Below, in pieces: positions 11,529 through 61,913 of a stretch of DNA of 64,000 bases. The position numbers and the translations under genes are program-made. The notes below the pieces were generated by a model. The model was not told where the DNA came from, made no database searches, and saw only the letters and a list, made by a program, of their open reading frames with translations. Position 1 is the stretch's first letter, and each line of letters opens with the position of its first letter. The DNA lies in the IMG/VR virus record IMGVR_UViG_3300044953_000297. The stretch is one strand, 5' to 3'. This stretch comes from an uncultured virus (IMG/VR IMGVR_UViG_3300044953_000297) (taxonomy: Duplodnaviria; Heunggongvirae; Uroviricota; Caudoviricetes).

Positions 11529-12674
11529 ATGGCAAAAAAATCTAGTGTTACAAAAGAATCTGCTCAACGAGATGAATTAATTGAATTGTTGGCAAACGAG
11601 CTTAACAAAGCAAATAAAGATGGTGGAAAGATCGCTTATTTCTTGGATGAACAGGAAAATCCAGCAGAAATTAGTGATTGGATTGGTACTGGGTCGTCTA
11701 TCCTAGACCTCGCAATTAGCAATCGTCCTCACGGAGGTTTGCCCGTTGGTAAGATGGTTGAATTCAATGGATTGGAAGGTACTGGTAAGAGTCTAGTATC
11801 CGCACATGTTGTTGCAAACACTCAAAAGAAAGGTGGTGTTGCGGTAGTAATTGATACTGAAAACGCAGCTGCTCCTGAGTTCTGGAAGAGCTTGGGTGTA
11901 GATTTGTCTAAGCTACTATATGTTCAATGTGAAACCGTTGAAGATATTTTTGCTCAGATGGAAAAGATGATTGCAATTGTTCGTAAGAGCAACAAAGATC
12001 GTATTCTAACAGTTATTGTTGACTCTGTAGCAGCAGCATCCACAAAATCAGAACTAGAAAGCGACCACGGTAAAGACGGGTTCGCAACTGGTAAGAGTAT
12101 CATTATCAGTAAGGCAATGCGTAAGATTACTACCATGATTGGTCGTCAAAAGGTTCTTACTGTATTTACTAATCAACTTCGTCAGAATCTAAATGCAATG
12201 GCATTTGGTGACAAGTATGTGGTAAGTGGCGGTAAGGCACTTGCTTACCATTGTAGTGTTCGTGTTCGTTTGAACAATACTGGAAAGCTGAAAAAGGCCG
12301 AGGAAGTTATTGGTAACGAGTGTAAAGCGGTTGTTATCAAAAACCGAATAGGTCCACCACAACGACAAGCTAATTTTGAAATTTACTTTGATAGTGGAAT
12401 TGCCGACTATAGCAGTTGGATCAAAGTATTGAAAGAAAATAATATTGTCAAACAAGGTGGTGCTTACTATTCCTATAGAAAAGATGACGGAAACGAATGG
12501 AAATTTCAATCCAAAGATTTTGTGACAACCATGCGGTCTGATGAAGCTCTAAAAGAAGAGTTGTATCTGAAGATTTGTGACGCCGTTATTATGAAATACA
12601 AGGATCCGAACAGCCAGATTGTTGATGACGCTGTGGTTGACACCGAAGAAGAAACTGCTAGAAACGAAGAATAA
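11529..12674 (+). CDS. recA: RecA/UvsX recombinase
   Basis: Walker A GLEGTGKS, IDTENA, VDSVAA, FTNQLR, SGGKAL, KNRIGPP. Confidence 0.92.
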   Translation: MAKKSSVTKESAQRDELIELLANELNKANKDGGKIAYFLDEQENPAEISDWIGTGSSILDLAISNRPHGGLPVGKMVEFNGLEGTGKSLVSAHVVANTQKKGGVAVVIDTENAAAPEFWKSLGVDLSKLLYVQCETVEDIFAQMEKMIAIVRKSNKDRILTVIVDSVAAASTKSELESDHGKDGFATGKSIIISKAMRKITTMIGRQKVLTVFTNQLRQNLNAMAFGDKYVVSGGKALAYHCSVRVRLNNTGKLKKAEEVIGNECKAVVIKNRIGPPQRQANFEIYFDSGIADYSSWIKVLKENNIVKQGGAYYSYRKDDGNEWKFQSKDFVTTMRSDEALKEELYLKICDAVIMKYKDPNSQIVDDAVVDTEEETARNEE

Positions 12675-13747
12675 TGAGTGGTTTCACACCAAACGAACGA
12701 AAGAAACTATTCTCTCTGTTTAAGAACATAGAAGGAGATTCCGTCACAACAGGACTAAAAAAGTCGCTTAACAGCGATGTCCTGTTGGTTGACGGGTTGT
12801 AGTTAAACACCTATATTCGTAGTTTCATGTCAGTGCCATCGCTAAATGATGACGGTCTTCATACTGGCGGTATTGCTGGATTTTTAAAAAGTGTGGGATA
12901 TGCAATTAAATTATTAAGTCCTACGCGGGTTATTATTGTATTTGACGGAAAAGGTGGATCACAAAAAAGAAGAAAGATTTATCTTGATTACAAAAATGGT
13001 CGTAGAACTGATATTAGATTAAACAGAACATATAATGAATTGTCGGACAGTATTACAGAATCGCAAAATTTTAAAAAGGAATTAATTAGAACGGTAAGTT
13101 ATTTGGATACCCTTCCAACAACTGTAATGGCCATTGATCAAGTTGAAGCCGATGATACTATTGCCTATCTAGCTAAACAGACATTCAAAGATAGCAATGT
13201 CACTATCATGTCTACCGACAAAGACTTTTTACAGTTAGCTAACGATAGAATTAATGTGTGGAGTCCTGTAAAGAAAAAGATTTTTGGTTGCAAAGAAATT
13301 GTGGATGAATATGGTATTACATGCAAAAATTTTATCTTCTATAGAATTATGGAGGGTGATACAAGTGATAATATTCCGGGATTAGATGGTGTAGGTTTAA
13401 AGAGAGTTGTACAAGCGTTTCCTTTTCTAGGAGAAGATCCTCAGGCTTGTATACAACAAATATATAATTATAGTGAGAATCACCGTAACAAGTATAAGAT
13501 TTATGATCGTGTGCTAGACAACAAATTATTGTTGGAACGAAATTATGAATTGATGCAGCTGCATGATACTCAAATTCAATCATTCACTCAATTGAGAATT
13601 GAAGAAATAATAAACAAGCCAATTCCCCGTATAGACAAGATGGGATTCAGTAAATTAATAACTGAAGATAAGATGTGGAATAATTTGCCAAACTATATAG
13701 TTTGGTTAAGTGAGACGTGGGGTAAACTCAACAGTTTTGTTGAGTAA
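12674..13747 (+). CDS. 5'-3' exonuclease/flap endonuclease (T4 RNase H-like), interrupted by in-frame TAG at 12800-12802
   Basis: Starts at TAATG overlap with recA; VLLVDGL*LNTYIRSF, VFDG, YKNGR, EADD, STDKD, GDTSDNIPG motifs. Confidence 0.88.
12740..12805 (+). other. Candidate ribosomal bypass element 1 (long hairpin + TTG-TAG-TTA)
   Basis: CCGTCA/TGACGG, CAACAGGAC/GTCCTGTTG and GTCGCT/AGCGAT stems end at 12796; then TTG TAG TTA. Confidence 0.65.
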
Positions 13748-15292: not shown

Positions 15293-16909
15293 ATGAATAA
15301 AGAAATTTTTATAAAGAAGCGAAATGGTATAGTTGAAAAGTTTAACGCGGACAAAATAAACAAAGTGTTGCAATGGGCGACTGACGATATAAAAGGTGTC
15401 AGTTTTGAAGAAGTAGGAATGAATGCACATTTATCATTTTTTGACGGAATGGCAAGTGTTGATATTCACAAATTACTTATTGAGTCTGCTGCAAATCTAA
15501 TTAGTGAAGAAAAACCAAACTATCAATATGTGGCCTCTAGACTGTTAAATTATCAGCTTAGAAAAAATGTATGGGGAGGTAAAAATCCACCCAAGTTATA
15601 TGATATTGTAAAAAAGAATGTTGAGTCACTCGTATATGATCAACAAATTCTAGAATGGTATAGTAAACAAGAATTTGATAAATTGGATGAATATCTGAAG
15701 CATGACCGTGATTTTAATTTCACATATGCTGGTATCAAACAATTGTGTGATAAGTATTTGGTACAAAATCGTGTAACCAAAACTGTTTACGAAACTCCAC
15801 AATTTACATATATGTTGATTGCTATGACCTTCTTCAAAGGTTATAAAGAAAAGAGACTAGAGTATATTAAAAAAGCATACAACTACTTTAGCAAACACAA
15901 GATTAATCTTCCAACGCCAATCATGGCTGGAGTCAGAACTGTAATGAAGAGTTATGCAAGTTGTTCTCTCTTTACTGTTGATGACACCCTTAAGAGCATT
16001 TTTGCTAATAATAGTGCAGTAGGATTTGCTACTGCAAGTCGTTATGGTATTGGTTTGAATCTATCAAGATTACGTGCCACAAATGCTCCTATTCGTAATG
16101 GTGAAGTAATTCATACAGGTCCAGTTCCTTTTAGTAAGGCATTTGAATCTACCGTAAAGAGTTGTCACCAGAATGGTATTCGTGGCGGAAGCGCAACAGT
16201 TAATTTCGCATGGTTTCATTATGATATTCTTGACATTCTTGTATTGAAGAACAATCAAGGAACTGATGATAATCGTGTTCGCAAATTAGATTATTGTATT
16301 GGTTTAGACAAATTAATATTTGAACGATTCTTACAGAACAAGGACGTTACACTATTTAGTTATCATGAATGTCCATCATTGTGGAACAGTTTTGGATTGC
16401 CAGACTTTAAAGAAAAGTATGAAAGGGCTGAAGCTGACAAGAATATTAAATTCAAGAAGAAAGTATCTGCTCGTGAACTGATGGGTCTACTTGCTAAAGA
16501 AAGATTGGAAACTGGTCGTATTTATACCATGCATGTAGATCATGCAAATGAACACGGTAGCTGGCTAGATCAAGTAGATACAAGCAATTTGTGTTTACAT
16601 CCAGATACACAAGTTTCTTGCGTAGTTGATAATATTCCCATGAAATTATCTCTTAAAGAAGTGGATGATTTATTCAAACAAAATAAAAATATAAATGTAT
16701 TATCAAAAAATATAGACAATCAAGAAATTTCTTATAAAGAAGTTTTAAATTCAAATATTACCGGTGTTGATGCAAACTTAATAGAAATTACAGATGAAGA
16801 AACTGGATTTACTATTAAATGTACAGAGGATCATTTAATTTTCACTAAAAATAGAGGATATGTAAAAGCCAAAGATTTAAATGAAACTGACAGTTTAGAT
16901 ATTATATAA
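15293..16909 (+). CDS. nrdA: Ribonucleotide reductase alpha, N-terminal part fused to split intein N-fragment
   Basis: ATP cone, PTPIMAG, ASC, QNGIRGG; SNL followed by intein start CLHPDT at 16592. Confidence 0.92.
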   Translation: MNKEIFIKKRNGIVEKFNADKINKVLQWATDDIKGVSFEEVGMNAHLSFFDGMASVDIHKLLIESAANLISEEKPNYQYVASRLLNYQLRKNVWGGKNPPKLYDIVKKNVESLVYDQQILEWYSKQEFDKLDEYLKHDRDFNFTYAGIKQLCDKYLVQNRVTKTVYETPQFTYMLIAMTFFKGYKEKRLEYIKKAYNYFSKHKINLPTPIMAGVRTVMKSYASCSLFTVDDTLKSIFANNSAVGFATASRYGIGLNLSRLRATNAPIRNGEVIHTGPVPFSKAFESTVKSCHQNGIRGGSATVNFAWFHYDILDILVLKNNQGTDDNRVRKLDYCIGLDKLIFERFLQNKDVTLFSYHECPSLWNSFGLPDFKEKYERAEADKNIKFKKKVSARELMGLLAKERLETGRIYTMHVDHANEHGSWLDQVDTSNLCLHPDTQVSCVVDNIPMKLSLKEVDDLFKQNKNINVLSKNIDNQEISYKEVLNSNITGVDANLIEITDEETGFTIKCTEDHLIFTKNRGYVKAKDLNETDSLDII

Positions 16910-17078
16910 AAATAATTATATGTTGTATTTAAACGATGAAAAAATAACAACATTGAATTTAAAAAAGGATTTTTGAAATATGTTAAAAATTAAAAAAATA
17001 AAAGAAAAATCAGATGTGTATGATATAACCGTAAAAGATAATCATAATTTTTATGCCAATAATATATTAGTTCACAAT
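16592..17078 (+). mobile_element. Split intein in NrdA (IntN 105 aa at 16592-16906, IntC 33 aa at 16980-17078)
   Basis: Block A CLHPDT, block B CTEDH, blocks F/G VYDITV..NHNFYANNILVHN/C; 70-nt spacer containing stops and an AAGGA RBS. Confidence 0.92.
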
Positions 17079-18068
17079 TGTCTTGAGGTAAATCATCCTT
17101 TAACTCCAATTTATGATGTAAATGATCCCAAGGGAGAAATCGGCGTTTGTATTTTGGCCGCATTAAATTGGTTAGAAATTAAAGATGATGAGGAAATGGA
17201 AAATGTTTGTGAAATTATTGTGAGAATGTTAGATTCACTAATTGATCACCAACAATATTTCGTTCCAGCAGCTGAAAACTTTGCAAAGAAGCGTCGTAGT
17301 CTTGGAGTCGGTGTAAGTAATTTGGCTGCTCTATTGGCTAAAGAAGGCATAAAGTATTGGGATAAAGAAACTCCGAACTTTGTTGCCAAATGGATGGAGA
17401 AGACGAGTTATTATTTAATTAAAGCTAGTGTACAAATGGCTAAAGAAGTTGGTAAATGTGAGAAGTTTGATCGCACTAAATTCAGTCAGGGAATTCTTCC
17501 AATTGACACATACAAGAGAGATATTGACGAATTTATTACAGAAAAATTACATTGTGACTGGGAAACTCTTCGTGAAGAAATTAAGAAACATGGTATGAGA
17601 CACAGTACACTTACTGCTTGTATGCCTGTTGAATCTAGCAGTGTGATTCAAAGTAGTACCAATGGCATTGAACCACCCCGTAGTGCTATTAGTTTCAAGG
17701 GTAGTAAGAGCAATATCTTGCCTGTGGTAATTCCAAATATTGATAAGTATAAAGATAATTATACTTTTGCGTTTGACATGCCAAGCAATGAAGGTTATCT
17801 AAAGGTAGCTGCGGCCATTCAAAAATTTACGGATATGAGCATAAGCACCAATACCTATTATATTCCTTCACGATATGATAAGAATAAAGTGCCTGTACAA
17901 GACGTAATCAAAGACATTCTATTGGCTTATAAGTATGGATTAAAGAATCTTTATTATGCAAATACAGATGATGGTGATAAACAAACTGTTATGGAAGAAA
18001 AGAATGTAGAAATAAAACAACCAACTGTACAAGAATCCGGTTGTGAAAGCGGAGCTTGTGCGCTATAA
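16980..18068 (+). CDS. nrdA: Intein C-fragment plus ribonucleotide reductase alpha C-terminal part
   Basis: HN/CLEV, VCILAA, RSLGVG, MPVESSS, NGIEP, KNLYY, terminal CESGAC. Confidence 0.92.
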   Translation: MLKIKKIKEKSDVYDITVKDNHNFYANNILVHNCLEVNHPLTPIYDVNDPKGEIGVCILAALNWLEIKDDEEMENVCEIIVRMLDSLIDHQQYFVPAAENFAKKRRSLGVGVSNLAALLAKEGIKYWDKETPNFVAKWMEKTSYYLIKASVQMAKEVGKCEKFDRTKFSQGILPIDTYKRDIDEFITEKLHCDWETLREEIKKHGMRHSTLTACMPVESSSVIQSSTNGIEPPRSAISFKGSKSNILPVVIPNIDKYKDNYTFAFDMPSNEGYLKVAAAIQKFTDMSISTNTYYIPSRYDKNKVPVQDVIKDILLAYKYGLKNLYYANTDDGDKQTVMEEKNVEIKQPTVQESGCESGACAL

Positions 18069-43971: not shown

Positions 43972-44664
43972 TTAATTATTAAATTGTTTTGAATCTCTTT
44001 CTTGTACTAACTGTGTATATTTTTTTGATGGCGTAGGTACGCCTCCCACTTTATTATATAAAGCCTCCATCGTGGACATTTGTTTAGCCGCTACATCCGC
44101 TTTTTCAGACTTTTTACTATCCGTACTACCAAATCCACCATCTCCTCGATCAGTTGTATCTAATTCGTTAACCAAAACAAATTCCACATTTTCTACTTTG
44201 GTTACTTTGAGTTGACATACTTTATCACCTTTTTTATAGATTTTATCAGTGTTGTATGAACCCACAATTTTTTCTGTAAATATATTAAGATCCTCTGGCT
44301 GCCAGATATACTTGAATCTAAGCAATACTTCCCCACGATAATCAGCATCGATTAGTCCGATACAATTAGCTAGTACCAAATTATATTTACTTATACTACT
44401 ACGAGGAAACGCTAGAATATCATAATCTGTTAAATCTACACTAAATCCTGTATGAGATACTTGTTCTTTTTGGACGGCCATTTTCAGATTGGTCTTATAT
44501 TGAATATAATCAATTCTTTTATAAGAACCATCTTCACGTTGAATACCCACAATTTCCGGATCACTTGTAGTGACAACATCATATCCAGTTGCACGTTTTG
44601 TACCTTTTGTAGGTAAATTACTTACTTCTTCGTAAGTTTCATTTTTTAAAACTTGTATTTTCAT
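43972..44664 (-). CDS. dut: dUTPase (trimeric)
   Basis: ATGYD, PRSS, GLIDADYRGE, RGDGGFGST. Confidence 0.92.
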   Translation of the reverse strand: MKIQVLKNETYEEVSNLPTKGTKRATGYDVVTTSDPEIVGIQREDGSYKRIDYIQYKTNLKMAVQKEQVSHTGFSVDLTDYDILAFPRSSISKYNLVLANCIGLIDADYRGEVLLRFKYIWQPEDLNIFTEKIVGSYNTDKIYKKGDKVCQLKVTKVENVEFVLVNELDTTDRGDGGFGSTDSKKSEKADVAAKQMSTMEALYNKVGGVPTPSKKYTQLVQERDSKQFNN

Positions 44665-45626
44665 ACTATTTCATTTTTAATCTGTTCGATGTCTACCTTG
44701 TGCAGCTCAAATCCAAGTTTTCCTTGCGGTAGATTTTTAATATCGTACCCAATATTTGTGTATATGTCAAATTTTTTAACAGGTGTAAAGTTATTAATCG
44801 TAAAATCCATAGCTGTACTGAATTGATTACACATATTTTTACTATTAATTCCTCCTTCACTCATCGCCCACTTACGACCCTCAAATCCATATTTTTCTCG
44901 TTTTTCACTGCCTACGAGGTACCAATACATAATAGCGTCAGCTATGTCACTATAGTCTGTCAAGTCATCCATAATATATGGTGTTGGAGGACTGCCTTGA
45001 AGGTTTTGAACTTTGGTCCAAATAGGTTTTACCCAAACACCATGTTTCTTATATTTTGCAGTAACATTTGTACCGAATTCTAAATCAAATTCGACTGGAG
45101 AACCATCATCCTTAGTCATGCCTATTTGATCTTGTAGACCACCTGTAACAGTAGCTATAACAGGAGTACCGCACATTATACTTTCAGCAACACTCAATCC
45201 AAATCCTTCGTTTGAACTTATATTTGCGGTTACATCTGCTAAATTGTAGAATGCAACCATTTCTTCTGGAGTTCTACGAGATTCATCGATAACAATTTTA
45301 TACTCAGGACATACAGCTTGTACTGTGGCCGGAAGATCAGTTCCAGCTTCACATACTTTATCGGTGTGCATAATTAATGCACATTTTTTTGCTTCCTCTG
45401 GAGTTAATGAGGAACAAAATGATTTGAATGCCATTATTAAATTTGCAGGATGTTTACGATGTGCATTTCTACTATTAAATGCAATAATAAAATTGTATTC
45501 TCCGTCCCCTAGATATTCTTTTTTAATTTTATTGATAGACGAGTCACCTTTTGGAAGGGGCTTAAATTCGTCACTATTGATACCGTGCGGTACTAGATGT
45601 AATAGATGTTTTCCTTTTACTGGCAT
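44661..45626 (-). CDS. GT-B glycosyltransferase, C-terminal part
   Basis: VPHGI, RK, NEGFGLSVAESIMCGTPVI. Confidence 0.82.
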   Translation of the reverse strand: MPVKGKHLLHLVPHGINSDEFKPLPKGDSSINKIKKEYLGDGEYNFIIAFNSRNAHRKHPANLIMAFKSFCSSLTPEEAKKCALIMHTDKVCEAGTDLPATVQAVCPEYKIVIDESRRTPEEMVAFYNLADVTANISSNEGFGLSVAESIMCGTPVIATVTGGLQDQIGMTKDDGSPVEFDLEFGTNVTAKYKKHGVWVKPIWTKVQNLQGSPPTPYIMDDLTDYSDIADAIMYWYLVGSEKREKYGFEGRKWAMSEGGINSKNMCNQFSTAMDFTINNFTPVKKFDIYTNIGYDIKNLPQGKLGFELHKVDIEQIKNEIV

Positions 45627-45629
45627 AAA

Positions 45630-46222
45630 TTATCCTTTAATAATGTTTCCGTTGTTATCAAAATCACCATAGACACTGGTACAATTTTCTGGTCCCAATA
45701 CCCACTTATTTATATTATATGTTTGTTTGCTAATTGTAAACAATGCATCACAACTTTGATAGAATGGTTTATTCCACATTGGATACGGCAAATCGTCCCA
45801 AATATTTAAGTATGTTAATGGAATTTTACTGCGAATCTGATTTTCTACAGCATATAACCATCCCCAAAAACGAGGATCTGTAAAGTGAAGAATAGCATCT
45901 GGTTTTTCAATAGCCATAACTTGGAATAAAATTTCCTCGTCTCCATACCCGTCTACCGGATATAATTTAAGATAACAGTCGTTTCTGCCAGTCATTTTAT
46001 CACTGGCCTCTTTCATATCTACAATTTTACCTTTCTCAGGATGATTAATTGCACCCGCAATTTGTACCCAATCGTAGTGGTGTAGTGTGCCTAATACAAG
46101 TTCTCGACTCATAGTGGCTACACCAGAATGCATTCTCATTACAAATCGTCACTCAGAAGAAGAATTTTCTTCTTGTGACGATTTGCTGCCTCCTTAACAG
46201 CGATATTATCAATATTAATCAT
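45630..46222 (-). CDS. GT-B glycosyltransferase N-terminal part, interrupted by TTG-TAA-TG at 46137-46144
   Basis: MINIDN...KKKILLLSDDL* (46222-46139) then, in another frame, RMHSGVATMSRE...TDPRFW...WDD. Confidence 0.78.
46137..46186 (-). other. Candidate ribosomal bypass element 2 (long hairpin + TTG-TAA-TG)
   Basis: GCAAATCGTCAC/GTGACGATTTGT 12-bp stem plus AAGAAGA/TCTTCTT 7-bp stem, covering the TTG. Confidence 0.6.
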
Positions 46223-47218
46223 ATTATTTTATTTATTGTTCCGTCGTCATTAAAAATATAAATTTTATATTTAAACCCACACTGAATCGCAGCGTTTTGT
46301 TTTAATGACATATTTTTTTTTGTGTAAATTGTATGTATAAATTGATTTAACATCAATCAATAAATTATCGGATTTTATATAAAAATCTGGACAGTGAATT
46401 CTTTCTTTTTGATTCTCTATATATTTTATCTTTGGAATTAAAACTCTGTCATTTATAATTTCTGTTTCATTATATTCCGTTAATAAAAGATTCAAGCCAA
46501 ACGGCTCATATCCTTGACACTTTACATTTTTCCCAGATAGCAGTGTATAATTTTTCCATTTACATTTTATAGAATTTGAAAATTGCGGATTTTCAACTCC
46601 GTGAGTCTTTAATAAAGTACTTTTAGATTTTTCTTTCACACTATCCAACTGAAACCCATTTTTTACGCCATATTTTTTTAACATTGTCTGTTTATACGAC
46701 TCACTTCTTTTTTTAAGATTTTCGTGATTCCAAGATTTTTTGATAGACTCCGCATTTCTATTTACCCGAACATCGTTAGTTTTTGTCAATCCCACATTCC
46801 ACGATATAAATGATTTTCGTTTCTTATATTCTTCATTGTTTTTTATAAATAAAGATGAGTGAGTGTGAATGTAATCGTGAAATCCATCTTTTATATTTTT
46901 GAATGTAGATTTGGTATTACAACCACATTTACACAAAGGCGCAATATTATTGCAATAGTATTTTATGTAATAAGATTCTAAAGTTTCTTTATGTGTTTTT
47001 ATATGTCGTGACAAAGATTGTGAACCCTTTATATTTTTATTACAATTTTTACAAGTATATGTTATTATATTTGGATTTCTTTTCCCAATATTAGATGTTG
47101 GAAATTTATTAATATAATCTTCTAATGATATATTATGAATTCTTTTTAAATGAGAACCATTTAAACGGTCTTTCATATTTAGACCACACAATTCACATTT
47201 TATTAGACAATTACTCAT
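46219..47218 (-). CDS. Zinc-finger / PD-(D/E)XK homing endonuclease-like protein (frameshifted at A run ~46315)
   Basis: CxxC..H..H fingers, CKCGC, KYGVKN repeats, QGYE, PDFY...IDVKS; removing one A extends it to a TGA overlapping ATG 46222. Confidence 0.75.
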
Positions 47219-47358
47219 TTTTTAATGCTTCCGCTAATCTTTGTTAAAATTGCATTTTCCACAAATCTATTCATTTTGTAACCATTATCATCGCAGAACG
47301 ATTTTAATATTATTTTGAATTTTTTTGATATTTGTATAGACCATTTATCATCTTTCAT
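47215..47358 (-). CDS. Small ribbon-helix-helix-like protein (47 aa)
   Basis: MKDDKWSIQISKKFKIILKSFCDDNGYKMNRFVENAI...; ATGA overlap with endonuclease. Confidence 0.6.
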   Translation of the reverse strand: MKDDKWSIQISKKFKIILKSFCDDNGYKMNRFVENAILTKISGSIKK

Positions 47359-47384
47359 ATCTAATATATATTATATATCTAAGA

Positions 47385-47447
47385 TTAAATAAGAAAAATC
47401 TTACTTAAATCATCGTCACTTAATAAGAGTATTTTCTTTTTCTTCAT
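47385..47447 (-). pseudogene. Abandoned original 5' end of the GT-B gene
   Basis: MKKKKILLLSDDDLSKIFLI*, ATGA-coupled to upstream ORF; duplicates KKKILLLSDDL at 46142-46174. Confidence 0.75.
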
Positions 47448-47665
47448 TTATTAAATCCTCCAGATGATAATGAAAATGGAGCATTGTGACTTAGCTTAGT
47501 ACAAACACTCTCACTTATTTCGGTTTGAAAATCTGTATCTGTCAAATATTTTTCTAGACATTTATTTACAAAATCTTGAAAAGATATTTTACCTCGTATA
47601 TTAATTTCTTTGAATTGATTGTACAATTCTTGATTAAGTTTTACTGTTGTAACAAATTGATCCAT
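47444..47665 (-). CDS. Ribbon-helix-helix-like DNA-binding protein
   Basis: TTVKLNQELYNQFK...SFQDFVNKCLEKYL. Confidence 0.65.
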   Translation of the reverse strand: MDQFVTTVKLNQELYNQFKEINIRGKISFQDFVNKCLEKYLTDTDFQTEISESVCTKLSHNAPFSLSSGGFNK

Positions 47666-49660: not shown

Positions 49661-49888
49661 ATGAAACTAGAACAACTTAAATCATTATCTGAAGATGAAC
49701 TTGTTTTATTGTGGGGGTGCATTAATTTAGTTGAACCTAAAATTGTGCAATCTTATGATTTAGAACCGTCTTTATTTCCATCAATAAACCATAGAAAGTT
49801 AATGGATAAGCTTACTAATTGTAAAACTAAAATAAAAGAAGAACACCATGCACTTTTTGATGGACTTCTTAACAAGTTGCGTATATAA
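49661..49888 (+). CDS. Hypothetical protein
   Basis: 75-aa ORF upstream of polB. Confidence 0.55.
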   Translation: MKLEQLKSLSEDELVLLWGCINLVEPKIVQSYDLEPSLFPSINHRKLMDKLTNCKTKIKEEHHALFDGLLNKLRI

Positions 49889-49895
49889 TTTTATA

Positions 49896-51935
49896 ATGTA
49901 TCAAACTATCTTTATTTCTAAAAAAGACAATACTGTTCATCTATGGGACGATCAAAAAGGTTACATAAAGTTCCCATATCGACCATATGCTTATCGTAAG
50001 CGTACTGGTGGTATGTATCGCAGTATTTATGGAGATGAACTTGAAAAAGTTTATAAATTTAATCCCAAAGATCCTTCGCTATTTGAAAGTGACGTTCCAG
50101 ACACCACACGCGTCTTGATCGACGCATATGAAGATAGTGACGAACCTTCTACGGGTCATAGGTTAGTTTATTACGATATCGAAGTAAGTACTGAAGGTGG
50201 GTTTCCAAAGGTTGATGAAGCTGATAAGGAAATTACAGCTATTGCTTTGTACGATGCTACAACTGAACAATATACTGCATTTATTTTGGATAAGGATGAT
50301 CGTCTACAAGAATACAAGAAGGATAATGTAGAAGTACGTAGTTTTACAAATGAAGAAAGTTTGTTGAGTCATTTTCTAACTAAATGGGAAGAGATACAAC
50401 CAACTATTGCCACTGGATGGAATATTGATGAATTTGATACTCCTTATTTGTTTAATAGAATTAAACGGGTATTTGATGATCGTGAAGCCAAAAGACTTTC
50501 TCCCATCAAAGTTTGTTATAGAAACGATTGGAGTAAAAAGATAGTTGTAGCTGGTATATCATTTATTGACTACATGGTTTTGTACAAGAAGTGGAATATT
50601 AAACAAGAACCTAGTTATGCTTTGGGTGCGATTGGTAAGAAAGTTGTTGGGTTGGAGAAGATTACTTATAAAGGTAGTCTTGATGATTTGTATAAAGCTG
50701 ATATCAATCGTTATATTGAATATAATCTCAATGACGTTAAAATTATTGTTGCGTTGGAAAAAAAGCTTCAGTTTATTGAACAAGTTAGGGCTATATGTCA
50801 CAAAGGACACGTTCCGTATGATTGTTTTACGATGAGTTCACGTTTCATTGAAGGTGCAATTCTTATGTATCTTCGTCGTAAAGGACAAGTTGCTAAGAAT
50901 AAGCCCGTAGATGGACGTGAAGAATATGAAAATCAGATGGAACAAGGCGAAGAAGGATTTGAAGGTGCTTATGTAAAAGATCCTGTGCCTGGCCGGTATG
51001 ATTGGGTCTTTGACTTGGATCTTACTTCTATGTATCCAAATATTATTATTAGTTTGAATATTAGTCCCGAAACGAAAGTGGCAAAGGCTGAGAATTGGGA
51101 TCCAGAAAAGTTTATAAAGAATGAAGTGGAAACTGTTCAAGTTGGTAGTGCTTCTTATACAAAAGACGAATTTAAACAGTTGCTTGAAAAATCACAGTAT
51201 AGTATTGCTAGTAACGGTGTTATGTATAAACAAGATTATCAAGGCGTCATACCTGAAATTCTAGTCAAATGGTTCGATGAACGAAAAGAACTGCGAAAAC
51301 AAGCCAAGAAACACGGTGATGCAAAAGAATGGGAAAAGTATGAGTTCTACGATCAAAGACAAAAAGTACAAAAAGTACTTCTCAATTCAATTTATGGTGT
51401 ATTGGGTCTACCAATTTTCAGATTTTATGACAAGGATAATGCGAGCGCTGTTACTTTGACGGGTCAGGATATTATTAAAACTGCTAATAAAGCTATTAAT
51501 CAGTATTATAAGAGAACTCTCAACGAGACTGAGAATAAAGATTATGTTATATATGTAGACACAGATTCAGTTGCGTCTGATAGCTTAGTTAAGACCGATT
51601 TATATGGTGATATTAAAATTTGTGATTTATTTAATAATCTTTCGATGAATAAAGATGTTCAATATATTGAAGATATTCTTGGAAAAAAATTTATTTTTCC
51701 AAATAATTTGAAGATGCCTTATTACGATGAAACTGAAAAGATTGTAAAGTTTGGCAATGTAGATTATATAGAAAAACATAATGTTAAAAAAATTTCGTAT
51801 AAAATTAAAACCAAAACTGGAAAAAGTATTATCGTTACTGAGGATCATTCGGTTATGATTTTAGAAAATGACAAACTTGTTAAAAAACTTACAAAAGATT
51901 TAAAGAAAAACGATAAAATAATTTCGATTTGTTGA
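49896..51935 (+). CDS. Family B DNA polymerase N-terminal part + split intein N-fragment
   Basis: Exo DIE, GWN..FD, YNLND; DLTSMYP; K..LNSIYG; YVDTD followed by intein SVASDS at 51567. Confidence 0.93.
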   Translation: MYQTIFISKKDNTVHLWDDQKGYIKFPYRPYAYRKRTGGMYRSIYGDELEKVYKFNPKDPSLFESDVPDTTRVLIDAYEDSDEPSTGHRLVYYDIEVSTEGGFPKVDEADKEITAIALYDATTEQYTAFILDKDDRLQEYKKDNVEVRSFTNEESLLSHFLTKWEEIQPTIATGWNIDEFDTPYLFNRIKRVFDDREAKRLSPIKVCYRNDWSKKIVVAGISFIDYMVLYKKWNIKQEPSYALGAIGKKVVGLEKITYKGSLDDLYKADINRYIEYNLNDVKIIVALEKKLQFIEQVRAICHKGHVPYDCFTMSSRFIEGAILMYLRRKGQVAKNKPVDGREEYENQMEQGEEGFEGAYVKDPVPGRYDWVFDLDLTSMYPNIIISLNISPETKVAKAENWDPEKFIKNEVETVQVGSASYTKDEFKQLLEKSQYSIASNGVMYKQDYQGVIPEILVKWFDERKELRKQAKKHGDAKEWEKYEFYDQRQKVQKVLLNSIYGVLGLPIFRFYDKDNASAVTLTGQDIIKTANKAINQYYKRTLNETENKDYVIYVDTDSVASDSLVKTDLYGDIKICDLFNNLSMNKDVQYIEDILGKKFIFPNNLKMPYYDETEKIVKFGNVDYIEKHNVKKISYKIKTKTGKSIIVTEDHSVMILENDKLVKKLTKDLKKNDKIISIC

Positions 51936-52107
51936 AAGATATCAATAAATTAATAAATGAAACTTTTGACTATCTCATAAAATGAATTATATTATTGACG
52001 AAATTGAATCCGTAGAACCTTTAGGTGAAGTTCAAGAAGATTTTTACGACGTTGGTATGCGAGACACACCACATACATTTTTTGCTAATGATATTTTGGT
52101 TCATAAT
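51567..52107 (+). mobile_element. Split intein in PolB (IntN 122 aa, IntC 42 aa)
   Basis: Ser1, VTEDHS block B; FYDVGM..PHTFFANDILVHN/S. Confidence 0.92.
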
Positions 52108-52965
52108 AGTTGTTTTGTTAGCGCACTGCCTATTATCGAGAAAACGATGCCTGATATTGATGTAAACAATGAGAAACAAATGACCAAAGCTATTTTGGAA
52201 GTTTGTACAGAAGCTCAAAATCATGTAAATGATACATTCAATATTATGGCAAAGAGAATGTTTAATGTGGTCAAACATCGTTTTGATGCAAAACAAGAGG
52301 TTATTGCCAAGACCAGTTTTTGGCTGGCTAAGAAACGATATGCTCAGTTTATCATTAATACGGGTGGTATTGAATGTGATGAACTTGAAGTCAAGGGTAT
52401 TGACGTTGTTAGAACATCTTTCCCACTTAGATTCCGTAAGTTTATGGAACAATTCTTACAAGATATTCTTCGTAAAGTTGATAAAGAAAAGATTGATGCT
52501 AATATTTTGAAGTTGGTAGAAGATTTGCCTACGTTTAATGTGATTGAGATTGCAAAGAACACTAGTGTAAAGTTTAAGAGTCAAGATGGTAAGAAAGAAT
52601 ATGCTCCCAAGAGTCGTAGTCCGTTTAAGTATGTGTTAGGCACACCCGCACAAGCTAAAGCAGCTATATTCTATAATGATTTACTTGAACAGTTTGGTTT
52701 GACTAGGAATACACCTAAGATTCTTCATGGCCAAAAGATTAAGTGGGTATATCTTAAACAGAATGAGTATGGTGCTGAAGGTATTGCTTTGAAAGCGGAT
52801 GGTACAGATCCGGATGAAATTCTTGAGTTCATTGAGAAGTATGTAGATAGAACTGCTATGTACGAACAAGAACTTAAAGGTAAATTAAAAGATTTCTATG
52901 ATGTATTGAATTGGGAATATCCATCTGTAAATGATGCAAAAGCAAACGAGTTTTTTAGTTTTTAA
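51982..52965 (+). CDS. Intein C-fragment + family B DNA polymerase C-terminal part
   Basis: HN/SCFV, KKRYA, KGIDVVR; tail NEFFSF. Confidence 0.93.
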   Translation: MNYIIDEIESVEPLGEVQEDFYDVGMRDTPHTFFANDILVHNSCFVSALPIIEKTMPDIDVNNEKQMTKAILEVCTEAQNHVNDTFNIMAKRMFNVVKHRFDAKQEVIAKTSFWLAKKRYAQFIINTGGIECDELEVKGIDVVRTSFPLRFRKFMEQFLQDILRKVDKEKIDANILKLVEDLPTFNVIEIAKNTSVKFKSQDGKKEYAPKSRSPFKYVLGTPAQAKAAIFYNDLLEQFGLTRNTPKILHGQKIKWVYLKQNEYGAEGIALKADGTDPDEILEFIEKYVDRTAMYEQELKGKLKDFYDVLNWEYPSVNDAKANEFFSF

Positions 52966-59752: not shown

Positions 59753-60025
59753 ATGAGTTTCTTTAGCGAAGAAAGTTCCTCTTCCGTCAAAAATCATTCT
59801 TTGTGGTCGGAAAAATATCGTCCGGATGTATTGGATGGTTATATCTGTGATAGCAATCTAAAAAGCATTATTACAGATTTTATCAATCGTAAAGACATTC
59901 CGCATATATTGTTACATGGTAATGCTGGTACTGGAAAATGTTTAGATTATGATGAATTTATAGATGTAGAAATGGAAGTAACAAACGATGAATATGAAAT
60001 TTTAAAAAAATATGAAATAAATTGA
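59753..60025 (+). CDS. Clamp loader (RFC/gp44) piece 1 + 28-aa intein N-fragment
   Basis: WSEKYRP, PHILLHGNAGTGK, then CLDYDE at 59939. Confidence 0.88.
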   Translation: MSFFSEESSSSVKNHSLWSEKYRPDVLDGYICDSNLKSIITDFINRKDIPHILLHGNAGTGKCLDYDEFIDVEMEVTNDEYEILKKYEIN

Positions 60026-60040
60026 AATCGTGATACTGTG

Positions 60041-60086
60041 TATAGTTATGCAGGATTTGGACTTTTCCGATACCGGCATAACTATA
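60041..60086 (+). promoter_or_regulatory. Hairpin over translation start region of HNH gene
   Basis: TATAGTTATGC/GCATAACTATA stem, inner TTGGA/TCCGA, 4 nt before ATG 60091. Confidence 0.6.
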
Positions 60087-60090
60087 AATT

Positions 60091-61060
60091 ATGAAAATAA
60101 TATATAAACAATATAAAATTTTATCGGATGTTAAAAATTATAAAGAATTAGAAAATTTTATTATATCAAATCATTTGTTGAAAAATTTCAAATCGTTCGA
60201 TGTAAAATTTATTAATATTATTAATGTGGAAATTAACAAGACCGATAAAGTCTCTTTTAAAATATTTAAAAACAATTTTATTAAAAAATGGGTTAATTGT
60301 GGTACTTTTTTAAAAACTGAATATTGGACTCAGAGAGGTTGGACAATGGATGAAGCCATTGAAAATATTAAAAAATCCAATCTAATTATTCAAAAAAATC
60401 AAATTTAAAAAATAAACCGTGAGCACTTAATACTAGAATTGAATTTTGGTTAAAAAAAGGATATTCACAATCGGAAGCGGTTGAAAAATTGAGAGAAAGA
60501 CAGTCGTGTTTTTCCAGAAATAAATTAATAAAGAAGTATGGCGAAGAAATTGGAAACAGAATAGTTGATGAACGAAATAAAAAATGGGTTGATTCTTTGA
60601 AAAAGAATAATGATTGGGATGCATTATCAATTAAAAAAGGAAATAATGGTTTGAATAAATATAAAAGTCTAAATGATATGATCTCAGTATATGGAGAATT
60701 GGAAGGTAGAATAATATTTTCGTTAAGATATTGGGGGAAAAAAATTTCAACCGTCGAAGAATTTAATGAAATAGACTTATTTAAAAAAAGAGAACGAACA
60801 TCATTATTTTACAATAAAAATTACAGATTTAAAATATTATCCAAACAAAATTTCAGTTGTGGGGAATGTGGGGAATGTGGGATTTCAAATAAAGAACGTT
60901 TATTTCATCTACATCATATAGATTTCGATAAAAAAATGATAAAATTGACAACTTGATCTTTTTATGTCATAATTGTCATGCAAAAACTACAAATGCGAAG
61001 TTAGAAAAAAGAAAATGCTTAATAGAAAAGTTTAAAAAATTGAATGAAAAATACACTTAA
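60091..61060 (+). pseudogene. Degenerate HNH homing endonuclease between intein halves
   Basis: W..KG.S..EA repeats, KYGEE.G; HHIDFDK..D.IDNLIFLCHNCH after frameshift; two frameshifts and an in-frame TGA. Confidence 0.78.
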
Positions 61061-61913
61061 AAAGTTTCGTATTCCAATTGGGGAACTGTTCACATTTTTC
61101 AATTTAAATGGAAATGATTATGACATTCCAAAGAAAATTTCCAGATTATTAAAAATAAAAACAGCTGACGGAAAATATACCGACATATTATATTTAATCA
61201 AAAAGTTTGGTAAAATTTATAATTATAAATTGGAAAATGGTATTGAAATAACTTGTGATGAAAACCATTTAGTTAAATCAAACGGAAAATTTACTTTTAT
61301 AAAAGACTGTACTTTGGTCGATACTATAAATGGGTCGTATAAAATTATAAATTCAACCTATCTAAAAGATGGTGATGTATATGATATGTCATTAAACGAT
61401 CCTCATGAATATATTACTTCATCTGGAATTATTTGTCATAATACAACCTTAGCTAAGATTATTGTAAAAAATATTCCATGTGATTGTGTTTATATTAATG
61501 CTAGTGATACTAATGGTATTGAGATGGTAAGAACTAAGATTAAGGGATTTGCTGGATCCGCAGGTTTCCAACCATTAAAAGTGATTATATTAGATGAATG
61601 TTTGGATGAAAATACTTTTGTTTATGTATTGAGAAAAGGTATTGAAACCAAAGTAAAAATAAAAGATGTCAATGAGAATGAAGATTTGATAAAATCTTTC
61701 AATATTAAACAATCTAAAATAGAATGGAGAACATTTTATTTGTGGGACAAAGGTGAACAAGAATGTGTGAGAATTGAATTGGAAAACGGAGAATCCGTAA
61801 TTTGTACATTAGATCATAAATGGTATGTTTTAAACGATAAAAACGAACCAATAAAAGTAAAAACAAAAGAATTAGTAGAAGGTAAATATGATTGCATTTT
61901 GTCTCCAGAATAA
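61044..61913 (+). CDS. Clamp loader piece 2: IntC (133 aa) - 52-aa extein - second IntN (104 aa)
   Basis: CDENH, VYDMS..PHEY..IICHN/TTLAK; INASD; VIILDE/CLDENT; CTLDH. Confidence 0.9.
   Translation: MKNTLKKFRIPIGELFTFFNLNGNDYDIPKKISRLLKIKTADGKYTDILYLIKKFGKIYNYKLENGIEITCDENHLVKSNGKFTFIKDCTLVDTINGSYKIINSTYLKDGDVYDMSLNDPHEYITSSGIICHNTTLAKIIVKNIPCDCVYINASDTNGIEMVRTKIKGFAGSAGFQPLKVIILDECLDENTFVYVLRKGIETKVKIKDVNENEDLIKSFNIKQSKIEWRTFYLWDKGEQECVRIELENGESVICTLDHKWYVLNDKNEPIKVKTKELVEGKYDCILSPE

Follow-up and report, generated by a model that had tools for sequence, protein, structure and literature searches.

Stop-containing gaps of five to seven nucleotides in two genes of a lake phage and its relatives, their probable mobile cassettes and a possible ribosomal hop across them

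An interrupted glycosyltransferase gene

How can a continuous protein come from a gene in which a stop codon and surplus nucleotides stand between two codons that are neighbours in its relatives? The question is raised by the minus strand at 45630-46222 of the window, by which we mean the whole stretch of 64,000 nucleotides (nt) analysed here, from an uncultured virus of the Caudoviricetes (IMG/VR record IMGVR_UViG_3300044953_000297). At this locus the gene for the N-terminal domain (N-domain) of a GT-B glycosyltransferase starts with a 27-codon open reading frame (ORF; 46139-46222, minus strand), which encodes MINIDNIAVKEAANRHKKKILLLSDDL, that is, a 16-amino-acid (aa) extension followed by KKKILLLSDDL, and which ends in GAT TTG TAA. 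A 169-aa ORF (45630-46139, minus strand; MRMHSGVATMS...) opens at an ATG (46137-46139) overlapping this TAA (46139-46141), the whole junction reading GAT TTG TAA TG AGA ATG CAT. The 5-nt insert TAATG (46137-46141) directly follows the Leu codon TTG (46142-46144), which we propose as the take-off codon and which is the final sense codon before the stop in all glycosyltransferase versions; the ATG would be the landing codon or else the codon of a restart, and from 46136 to 45630 the coding of the N-domain (RMHSGVATMS...) is resumed as in the uninterrupted reading of relatives. When TAATG is removed, KKKILLLSDDL-RMHSGVATMS is obtained. The 169-aa ORF has at least 589 relatives in IMG/VR, and in 79 of the best 80 this protein is continuous, M(K)KKKILLLSDDLRMHSG... 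being read without five extra bases between the Leu and Arg codons. Two cultured phages, Microcystis phage Mel-JY01 and Flavobacterium phage immuto, also read through without a gap. The 27-codon ORF, its TTG-TAA end, the TAATG and the continuous protein on skipping it had all been put forward in the original prediction, and they can be read directly from the DNA.

Four sequences carrying the interruption are known, namely the window, a further IMG/VR sequence (L049) and two metagenome contigs (L086 and L100), and the 27-codon ORF, a replacement 5' exon that we call copy B, is found in all of them. A search of metagenome contigs with the arms of the hairpin described below gave 18 loci, two of them true (L086 and L100) and 16 unrelated palindromes. 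An exact 26-mer and a degenerate junction pattern found no carrier in IMG/VR beyond the contig of L049; a search with the endonuclease protein of this locus found only a near-identical contig end (L084); and one further genome (G001) is the same phage as the window, 100% identical over its part, and not independent. The 5-nt version recurs as the same TAATG in L086, L100 and a contig of the public run X10, and L049 reads GAT TTG TAA TTG AGA, a 6-nt in-frame gap, so that the insert is not an assembly error, a possibility which had been raised from the start. Since the gap has 5 nt in some lineages and 6 nt in L049, any mechanism that bridges it must serve either frame.

Upstream of the gap, the RNA is predicted to fold into a hairpin (46141-46186, minus strand) of two stems, the outer of 12 bp and the inner of 7 bp, the 3' arm of which codes for S-D-D-L and ends on TTG-T. 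This structure, proposed by eye from the letters of the window, is borne out by folding: a 91-nt RNA around it reaches -28.3 kcal/mol with a z score of -4.07, and 0 of 200 shuffled sequences were as stable. The window has 1,154 stops preceded by 25 or more open codons, and when the 58 nt upstream of each are compared, those of this TAA rank second in stability (-24.7, against a mean of -6.2 and a standard deviation of 3.6), the third rank being held by the sister element in the flap-endonuclease gene that we describe further on. As a hairpin it is also a DNA palindrome, and it could double as a protein binding site.

Two nucleotides 5' of the outer stem as folded (46186), or four when only the Watson-Crick arm AAATCGTCAC is counted, lies a Shine-Dalgarno (SD)-like AAGGAGG (46189-46195, minus strand), identical in all four glycosyltransferase carriers. 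There are three AAGGAGG sites in the whole window, both strands included, and an SD core (a 4-mer at -18 to -4) stands upstream of 6 of 63 long window ORFs against a background of 5%, a rough count in which the start codon was taken as the first in each ORF. This low use hints at a host that rarely relies on SD sequences. Since AAGGAGG is rare and SD sequences are little used by the phage, its presence at this locus is not routine; it would serve either initiation or landing.

The block that takes in AAGGAGG, the hairpin and the stop (46137-46200) is identical to the window at 63/64 positions in L049 and at 64/64 in both L086 and L100. The corresponding figures are 642/948 (L049) and 786/948 (L100) for the endonuclease gene of the cassette (68-83%) and 316/443 (L049) and 358/443 (L100) for the rest of the N-domain ORF (71-81%), and synonymous sites elsewhere are near saturation (proportion of synonymous differences, pS, 0.67-0.75). 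The hairpin is thus invariant in the four glycosyltransferase carriers, and the covariation reported below comes from the sister element only. In the resumed ORF, Nei-Gojobori (NG86) comparison of the window with L086 gave pS 0.67, a synonymous distance (dS) of 1.70 and a nonsynonymous to synonymous ratio (omega) of 0.045, and that of L086 with L049 an omega of 0.109, the range among intact relatives being 0.038-0.138. These low values downstream of the gap indicate that the post-gap product is under strong purifying selection.

The C-terminal domain (C-domain) of the glycosyltransferase is encoded by a separate 321-aa ORF (44661-45626, minus strand; Pfam Glycos_transf_1, E 1e-12). The two domains lie in separate ORFs (GGA TAA TTT ATG) in 15 of 15 relatives examined and in Mel-JY01, and they are fused in immuto; the split between them is old and ordinary. 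Reassignment of the stop codon was rejected, given that TAA and TAG both occur as gap stops that the long window ORFs are intact under translation table 11, and that a search for tRNA genes in the window found none.

A candidate homing cassette around the gap

The resident gene's old 5' end survives in the window as a remnant that we call copy A (47404-47447, minus strand; ATG..AGT GAC GAT GAT TTA AG), which encodes MKKKKILLLSDDDL, as in intact relatives. The original prediction had placed an older gene start at 47447, and this start is real: a 20-codon ORF opens there with MKKKKILLLSDDD, as the intact relatives do, runs into cassette sequence and stops at 47385. Copy A ends in ...GAT GAT TTA AG and is followed by cassette sequence (TAAGATTTTTC...), the same sequence that comes directly after the upstream gene in L100. 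It breaks off at the Leu/Arg codons, the site of the 5-nt insert in copy B, which repeats KKKILLLSDDL with synonymous changes after the new 16-aa extension. Copy A is not present in L100 and L049.

Between the two copies lie two genes. The first of the cassette is a 47-aa ribbon-helix-helix (RHH; Arc-like) ORF (47215-47358, minus strand) with a weak match to a PHROG Arc-like repressor (E 0.007), identical to the window at 99/144 nt in L049 and at 125/144 nt in L100. The second is a homing-endonuclease-like gene (46219-47218, minus strand) matching Pfam DUF7487 (E 7.5e-28) and PHROG families labelled "homing endonuclease" (5.7e-7 and 2e-5); the matches cover an ORF of 315 aa (46271-47218), and the nuclease role is predicted from them. 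A conserved 73-aa gene upstream of the glycosyltransferase (47444-47665) also looks RHH-like by eye, as does the 47-aa ORF.

In the window, the endonuclease gene consists of these 315 aa and a shifted C-terminal piece, owing to a run of nine A (46313-46321). Contigs of four public runs were aligned to 45600-47500, and those of X6, X8 and X10 have one A fewer at 46313; in L100 the endonuclease gene is in a single frame, and its TGA overlaps the ATG of the 27-codon ORF. Since the only length difference of the X10 contig is at 46313, the window gene has one A too many, which could be a strain difference, a homopolymer error or a slippage-prone run. The endonuclease gene of L049 is broken at several places.

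The same alignments gave an empty site. A contig of X6, from another lake sample, joins 47412 to 46136 with CTA between them (GAC GAT CTA AGA ATG), and it differs from the window at 15 of 459 nt (about 97% identity over the N-domain). A second X6 contig has an L100-like junction, and a 4.8-kb contig of X10, a run of another study, has the cassette and the same TAATG. The carriers are not each other's closest kin, the window and L049 being 72% identical in N-domain amino acids and intact relatives 86-87% identical to each. Presence in some genomes and absence from others, the remnant of the old exon and the scattered carriers are together the pattern of a homing endonuclease polymorphism. We consider it very probable that a mobile cassette composed of the RHH ORF, the endonuclease-like ORF and the recoded first 11 codons was inserted at codon 12-13 of the N-domain gene, bringing the coding gap with it. 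We infer that the insert protects the genome of its carrier from the cassette's own nuclease by breaking the target site.

A group I intron was rejected as the nature of the insertion. No Rfam family matched in the window at its gathering score, and between 45900 and 47700 only chance miRNA-like matches appeared up to an E value of 10; moreover copy B keeps the protein reading with synonymous changes, unlike an intron.

The decay of the endonuclease gene, in the window as in L049, would suit a reading in which the N-domain gene is itself dead or dispensable, either inactivated by the insert or left with a truncated product that can be done without, and the hairpin has another function in the cassette, such as that of an operator bound by the RHH protein or of an RNA end. 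The hairpin is indeed also a DNA palindrome beside an RHH gene, and the N-domain ORF of L100 has a nonsense codon. We hold such a gene to be highly improbable, since the ORF downstream of the gap is intact, with omega of 0.045-0.109 among carriers that differ at most synonymous sites, the coding of KKKILLLSDDL is retained, and the sister element lies in a replication gene with an omega of about 0.05.

The sister element in the flap-endonuclease gene

The original prediction had seen the same architecture in two unrelated genes, and the second is the flap-endonuclease (5'-3' exonuclease) gene on the plus strand. The element (12674-12805) comprises a 42-codon ORF (...NSDVLLVDGL), with a hairpin (12741-12795) before the Leu codon, and the junction reads TTG (12797-12799), TAG (12800-12802), TTA (12803-12805), followed in frame by AAC ACC (LNTYIRSFMSVPS...), coding being resumed at 12806 and ending at 13747. 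The 306-aa ORF after the gap matches Pfam 5_3_exonuc_N from profile position 24 only. Hairpin, Leu codon, stop and short gap are thus shared as had been claimed, but the gap of the window has 6 nt and is in frame (TTG TAG TTA), not 5, the 5-nt form (TTG TAG TG) being found in relatives.

Among the best 80 of at least 598 relatives of this gene, ...LLVDGLNTYIRSF... is uninterrupted in 60, and the other 20 have an interruption immediately behind the VDGL Leu. Gaps of 5 nt account for 18 of these (GGA TTG TAG TG AAT in 17 of them, and CTG in place of TTG in the last), and one locus each has a gap of 6 nt (L161, TTG TAG TTA as in the window) and of 7 nt (L165, GGC CTC TAG CGTC AAT). A pattern scan returned 17 loci, seven of them unrelated chance matches, and added a 6-nt carrier (L192) and four 7-nt carriers; two of the latter have TAA for TAG (CTC TAA CGTC), where the stop has changed its identity and remains a stop. 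The carriers of 6- and 7-nt gaps are then the window, L161, L192, L165, L191, L193, L198 and L200. Directly after the gap, NTYIRSF/NTFIRAY is conserved in these classes, and for the window and L161, both with 6 nt, the ORF after the gap gives dS 1.89 and omega 0.049, so that it too is under purifying selection. The 5-nt carrier L108 is 95% identical to the intact L105 and L117.

The sister hairpin has varied, and it has done so in a concerted manner. Over 14 distinct sequences, 89.4% of cells are paired, against 32-49% when the 3' partners are slid; seven pairs differ at both partners, and the covariation score was not attained by any of 500 shuffles, the sequences being related to one another. 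Certain compensating changes leave the encoded amino acid unaltered on either arm (TCA..AGT versus TCG..AGC). The DNA at the two gap sites is alike (GTGACGATTTG at 46142-46152 of the glycosyltransferase, TTGACGGGTTG at 12789-12799 of the exonuclease), a likeness due to the fact that both encode x-Asp-(Asp/Gly)-Leu after a hydrophobic strand. CGTCAC occurs in the 5' arms of both hairpins.

The sister element too is linked to a nuclease gene. In a 303-kb genome (G003), a RecA-like gene is followed by 35 codons left over from the start of the resident exonuclease gene (97% identical to those of the intact L154, L156 and L158), then by a 303-aa ORF, the 42-codon replacement exon, the 5-nt gap and the remainder of the gene. 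The 303-aa ORF matches NUMOD3 (9.5e-5) and the PHROG HNH and homing-endonuclease families (1.7e-12, 1.1e-10). Of the 20 interrupted loci, 11 have a homologue of it (60-66% aa identity) directly upstream, the 7-nt L165 among them; none of the 60 intact loci has one, and in all 60 the RecA-like gene abuts the exonuclease gene. Eight interrupted loci (L118, L119, L121, L139, L141, L143, L151 and L152) have a spacer of about 100 nt instead of the nuclease gene, and the window and L161 have neither at this locus. Interrupted loci without the nuclease gene look like cases where the nuclease was lost and the gap was left behind.

The spacer of the eight loci (about 330-450) holds a terminator-like inverted repeat (TTTTCCACA..TGTGGAAAA). 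An intact exonuclease allele, L117 (300-620), combines N-terminal coding of the cassette type (MSNFDNKEMKK..DSVTGGLKK) with the spacer of about 100 nt and has no gap, and it may be a former carrier from which the gap was precisely lost.

The two endonucleases are not detectably alike (BLASTP E 0.36), and both weakly match phrog_3339. One design is, on these comparisons, shared by two genes and two nuclease families. Both elements form the 3' ends of homing-endonuclease cassettes, and the "general recoding system" that had been suggested is for this reason not a host-wide one, but would rather be a trick of mobile elements to disrupt their own target site; the recoding part of that suggestion fares better, being favoured by the 6- and 7-nt versions discussed below. 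A genome-wide scan for further elements had been recommended. A filter calibrated on the window returned both known elements there and added only an unrelated hairpin at 60092; on G003 (303 kb, 41% G+C) the same filter gave 106 candidates and is too loose to be useful, though it pointed to the old-exon remnant and the nuclease gene of that genome's exonuclease locus.

Crossing the gap

We favour a short hop over the stop over a restart after it, and would give the hop an even chance. In this proposal, the ribosome would translate the 27-codon ORF until the Leu codon TTG is in the P site and TAA in the A site. With TTG in that position, the inner stem would lie just outside the ribosome and the 3' arm of the outer stem still inside, and the zipping of the hairpin as it re-forms at the mRNA exit would pull the mRNA forward, AAGGAGG at the hairpin foot possibly helping. 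The peptidyl-tRNA-Leu would un-pair and pair again 5 nt further on, or 6 nt further on in the lineage of L049, and AGA would be the next codon decoded, which would give the ancestral product ...ILLLSDDL-RMHSG....

Five versions of the gap can be compared between the two genes, and in all of them deleting the gap exactly restores the ancestral protein, and the gap opens with a stop (TAG or TAA) directly after a Leu codon. The take-off codon and the codon before the resumed reading are TTG and ATG in the glycosyltransferase of the window, TTG and TTG in that of L049 (a 3/3 match), TTG or CTG and GTG in the 5-nt exonuclease, TTG and TTA in the 6-nt exonuclease and CTC and GTC in the 7-nt exonuclease. 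Two or three positions match in all five, those of the sister element at 2/3, or 3 with wobble, where a random codon would match at two or more positions in 10 of 64 cases. The sister junctions with 6 nt (TTA) and 7 nt (GTC) have no start codon, the next in-frame ATG, if any, being at least eight codons on, and this favours recoding over restart.

The same junctions can be read in terms of ordinary initiation. Here, translation would terminate at TAA and re-initiate at the ATG (TTG in L049), or begin directly there with the help of an AAGGAGG brought close by the closed hairpin, and the enzyme would be a non-covalent assembly of three pieces: the 27-aa peptide, bearing both strand beta-1 and the Asp-Asp motif, the remaining N-domain and the C-domain. 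TAATG and TAA-TTG each put the stop beside a canonical start, the TAGTG of the 18 5-nt flap-endonuclease loci contains GTG, the SD-like AAGGAGG is the same in four carriers, and a restart would be indifferent to the change of frame between lineages (5 versus 6 nt). The glycosyltransferase domains are already on separate ORFs, and there are precedents: a hairpin that bridges the distance between SD sequence and start is documented for T4 genes 38 and 25 (PMC3014915), and genes split by endonucleases are known to be functional (Aeh1 nrdA, T4 genes 39/60). We nevertheless regard restart as a doubtful explanation, if a serious one. The TTA and GTC of the 6- and 7-nt sister classes leave no in-frame start for at least eight codons, the codons in between being conserved; the main 5-nt sister class is without an SD-like sequence; the phage hardly uses SD sequences, as the count given above suggests; and a 27-aa peptide that supplies a central strand and the acidic motif in trans would probably be unusual. 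That the landing ATG is only a 2/3 match and that TAATG fits a restart had been conceded at the outset; the 2/3 match is that of the window, L049 matching at 3/3, and the fit to a restart holds for the window and for L049 but not for the start-less sister versions.

A simpler form of recoding, in a single step, could also be considered. The P-site tRNA might slip by -1 on GAU UUG UAA at 5-nt gaps and by +1 at 7-nt gaps, and the stop might be read through at 6-nt gaps, leaving two extra residues at the junction (e.g. SDDL-VM-RMHSG). The arithmetic is attractive, since 5 nt plus 1, 6 nt and 7 nt minus 1 each make two codons; U-UUG in the glycosyltransferase permits -1 re-pairing on UUU; and a stop in the A site is described as a stimulator of slippage (PMC5009743). 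Even so, one conserved design would need three mechanisms, tRNA-Leu re-pairs poorly on AUU (-1, 5-nt sister) and on UCU (+1, 7-nt), and the extra residues would probably fall in the loop that follows beta-1, where the conserved Asp motif is. We consider it improbable, only a shade less so than a dead gene.

The gap might instead be removed before translation, by RNA processing or by realignment of the polymerase over direct repeats of 2-3 nt. The insert is always flanked by such a repeat and has a strong hairpin directly 5' of it, but a repeat of 2-3 nt is far too short to re-anchor the RNA:DNA hybrid, and no Rfam family, group I introns included, matches the region. We know of no system that excises 5-7 nt, and of all the explanations we find this one the most remote.

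The hop itself has to be weighed against a number of observations that speak for caution. In both glycosyltransferase versions a canonical start (ATG or TTG) comes right after the stop, and with the hairpin closed the conserved AAGGAGG is about 7-8 nt from it, so that a restart would work at this junction; the glycosyltransferase is moreover already made as two polypeptides, its N- and C-domain, and pieces are to that extent tolerated. The landing codon of the window, ATG, has a first-position mismatch for tRNA-Leu. The five gap versions are related by small indels and are not independent trials, and the 2/3 codon match may be a side effect of the insert's origin, e.g. by a duplication of 2-3 nt. 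The hairpin is entirely 5' of the take-off codon, unlike the take-off stem-loop of gene 60, nothing obvious blocks the release factor at TAA, and the main 5-nt sister class has no SD-like sequence. The L100 N-domain ORF has a nonsense codon (..EEILY*IMALE..) where L086, from a sister sample, has Gln. Lastly, according to a 2016 review in Nucleic Acids Research (PMC5009743), stop-hops are not known from nature. The nonsense codon of L100 could be gene decay in one carrier, a variant or an error.

Some of what the hop would require has been described in other systems. In phage T4, mobA and the gene 60 bypass are described as one mobile element, in which the insert blocks self-cleavage, and homologues of the pair are described by Manning & Atkins (bioRxiv 10.1101/2022.08.31.505936). 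Our elements resemble it in having an endonuclease gene within an enzyme gene and, just downstream, an untranslatable insert that relatives lack and that would disrupt the target site, with a stop directly after the last sense codon. Take-off comes early in the protein (at codon 27 or 42 in our elements and at codon 46 in gene 60), the cassette brings new N-terminal sequence, the endonuclease decays or is lost while the gap stays, and different endonuclease families are found with the same kind of gap. They differ from it in the size of the gap (5-7 nt against 50 nt), in having no stem-loop in or 3' of the gap but a long hairpin of coding sequence wholly 5' of the take-off, in a take-off codon for Leu (TTG, CTG or CTC) and not Gly GGA, in a landing match that is often 2/3, and in the host genes, a GT-B glycosyltransferase and a 5'-3' exonuclease as opposed to the large subunit of a topoisomerase. 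A sequence relationship with the gene 60 cassette was not searched for, and none is expected. By these comparisons our element works like mobA/gene 60, if it does hop, but is not a member of that system, lacking its 50-nt gap, the stem-loop in the gap and the topoisomerase host gene. To judge by the title of Herr et al. 2004, landing can manage with minimal pairing.

In signal layout the closest parallel is the terminase of Streptomyces phage Hau3, for which 10-nt gaps with a proposed 5' stem loop and a flanking SD sequence are described, the junction peptide having been detected by mass spectrometry in Escherichia coli after a UUA to UAA change (PMC10732093). Both systems have short gaps that relatives lack, a slow A-site codon where the gap begins, a landing codon beside the codon where reading resumes, and a 5' stem loop with a flanking SD, here the hairpin at 46141-46186 and the AAGGAGG at 46189-46195. 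Hau3 differs in its trigger, the rare sense codon UUA, and in the regulatory role put forward for it; our elements have a true stop and gaps of 5-7 nt, and the consulted parts of that report do not mention a link to an endonuclease. Synthetic "stop-hops", in which a peptidyl-tRNA moves from a codon before a stop to a matched codon just past it, function in E. coli (Weiss et al. 1987, cited by PMC5009743), and TTG TAA TTG of L049 and TTG TAG TTA of the window have exactly that form; those were engineered, whereas ours come with a conserved, stimulatory-looking hairpin and a selected product. For gene 60, it has been suggested that forward bypassing is driven by pairing of the mRNA on the exit side (10.1101/2024.12.09.627546). 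Restart has its own parallels. The split genes Aeh1 nrdA (with mobE) and T4 39/60 likewise have a free-standing endonuclease gene inside an enzyme gene and new tails, and in T4 genes 38 and 25 an intervening hairpin brings the SD sequence near the start codon (PMC3014915); they differ in that one of the pieces here has only 27 aa and that two sister versions have no start codon for the second piece.

Other genes of the window are also divided. Those for the ribonucleotide reductase large subunit (15293-16909 and 16980-18068), a family B DNA polymerase (49848-51935 and 51982-52965) and a clamp-loader-like protein (61044-61913 and 63564 to the end) are each in two ORFs. Intein_splicing matches are found at the end of the first pieces and the start of the second, the second piece of the polymerase being intein-like by eye only, and this looks like split inteins in the three genes and a phage with many fractured genes. 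Furthermore, the region 59753-60956, with a 90-aa ORF that has a clamp-loader-like N-terminus (..EKYRP..), two small ORFs without family matches and a strong hairpin before 60092, may be another fractured gene.

What these elements mean depends on how the gap is crossed. On either reading, gene callers will mis-annotate such genes as truncated. Should the pieces be separate products, the elements would show that an enzyme can function when its first beta-strand and catalytic Asp come from a peptide of 27-42 aa. Programmed bypassing has been established at the bench essentially for T4 gene 60 and its homologues, for yeast mitochondria and for one Streptomyces phage candidate, and our literature searches found no published description of the glycosyltransferase and flap-endonuclease elements. 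The gaps of 5, 6 or 7 bases reported here occur in two unrelated genes of a single lake phage and in dozens of its relatives, with covarying Leu and landing codons, an upstream hairpin that is conserved and covaries, and links to two different endonuclease families; natural stop-hops are given as unknown in the 2016 review (PMC5009743). We tentatively hypothesise, rating the idea a little short of even, that hairpin-driven stop-hops are widespread in nature, as portable modules of about 70 nt (a 5' hairpin, a Leu codon, a stop and 2-4 nt) that let different families of homing endonucleases sit in essential phage genes, with ribosomes jumping 5-7 nt efficiently enough for a replication nuclease and a glycosyltransferase. 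Were that so, mobile DNA in environmental phages would commonly make use of bypassing, which would no longer be a curiosity of gene 60. A true hop would offer a minimal natural system with ready variants for the roles of exit-side mRNA pairing, the SD-like sequence and the stop codon.

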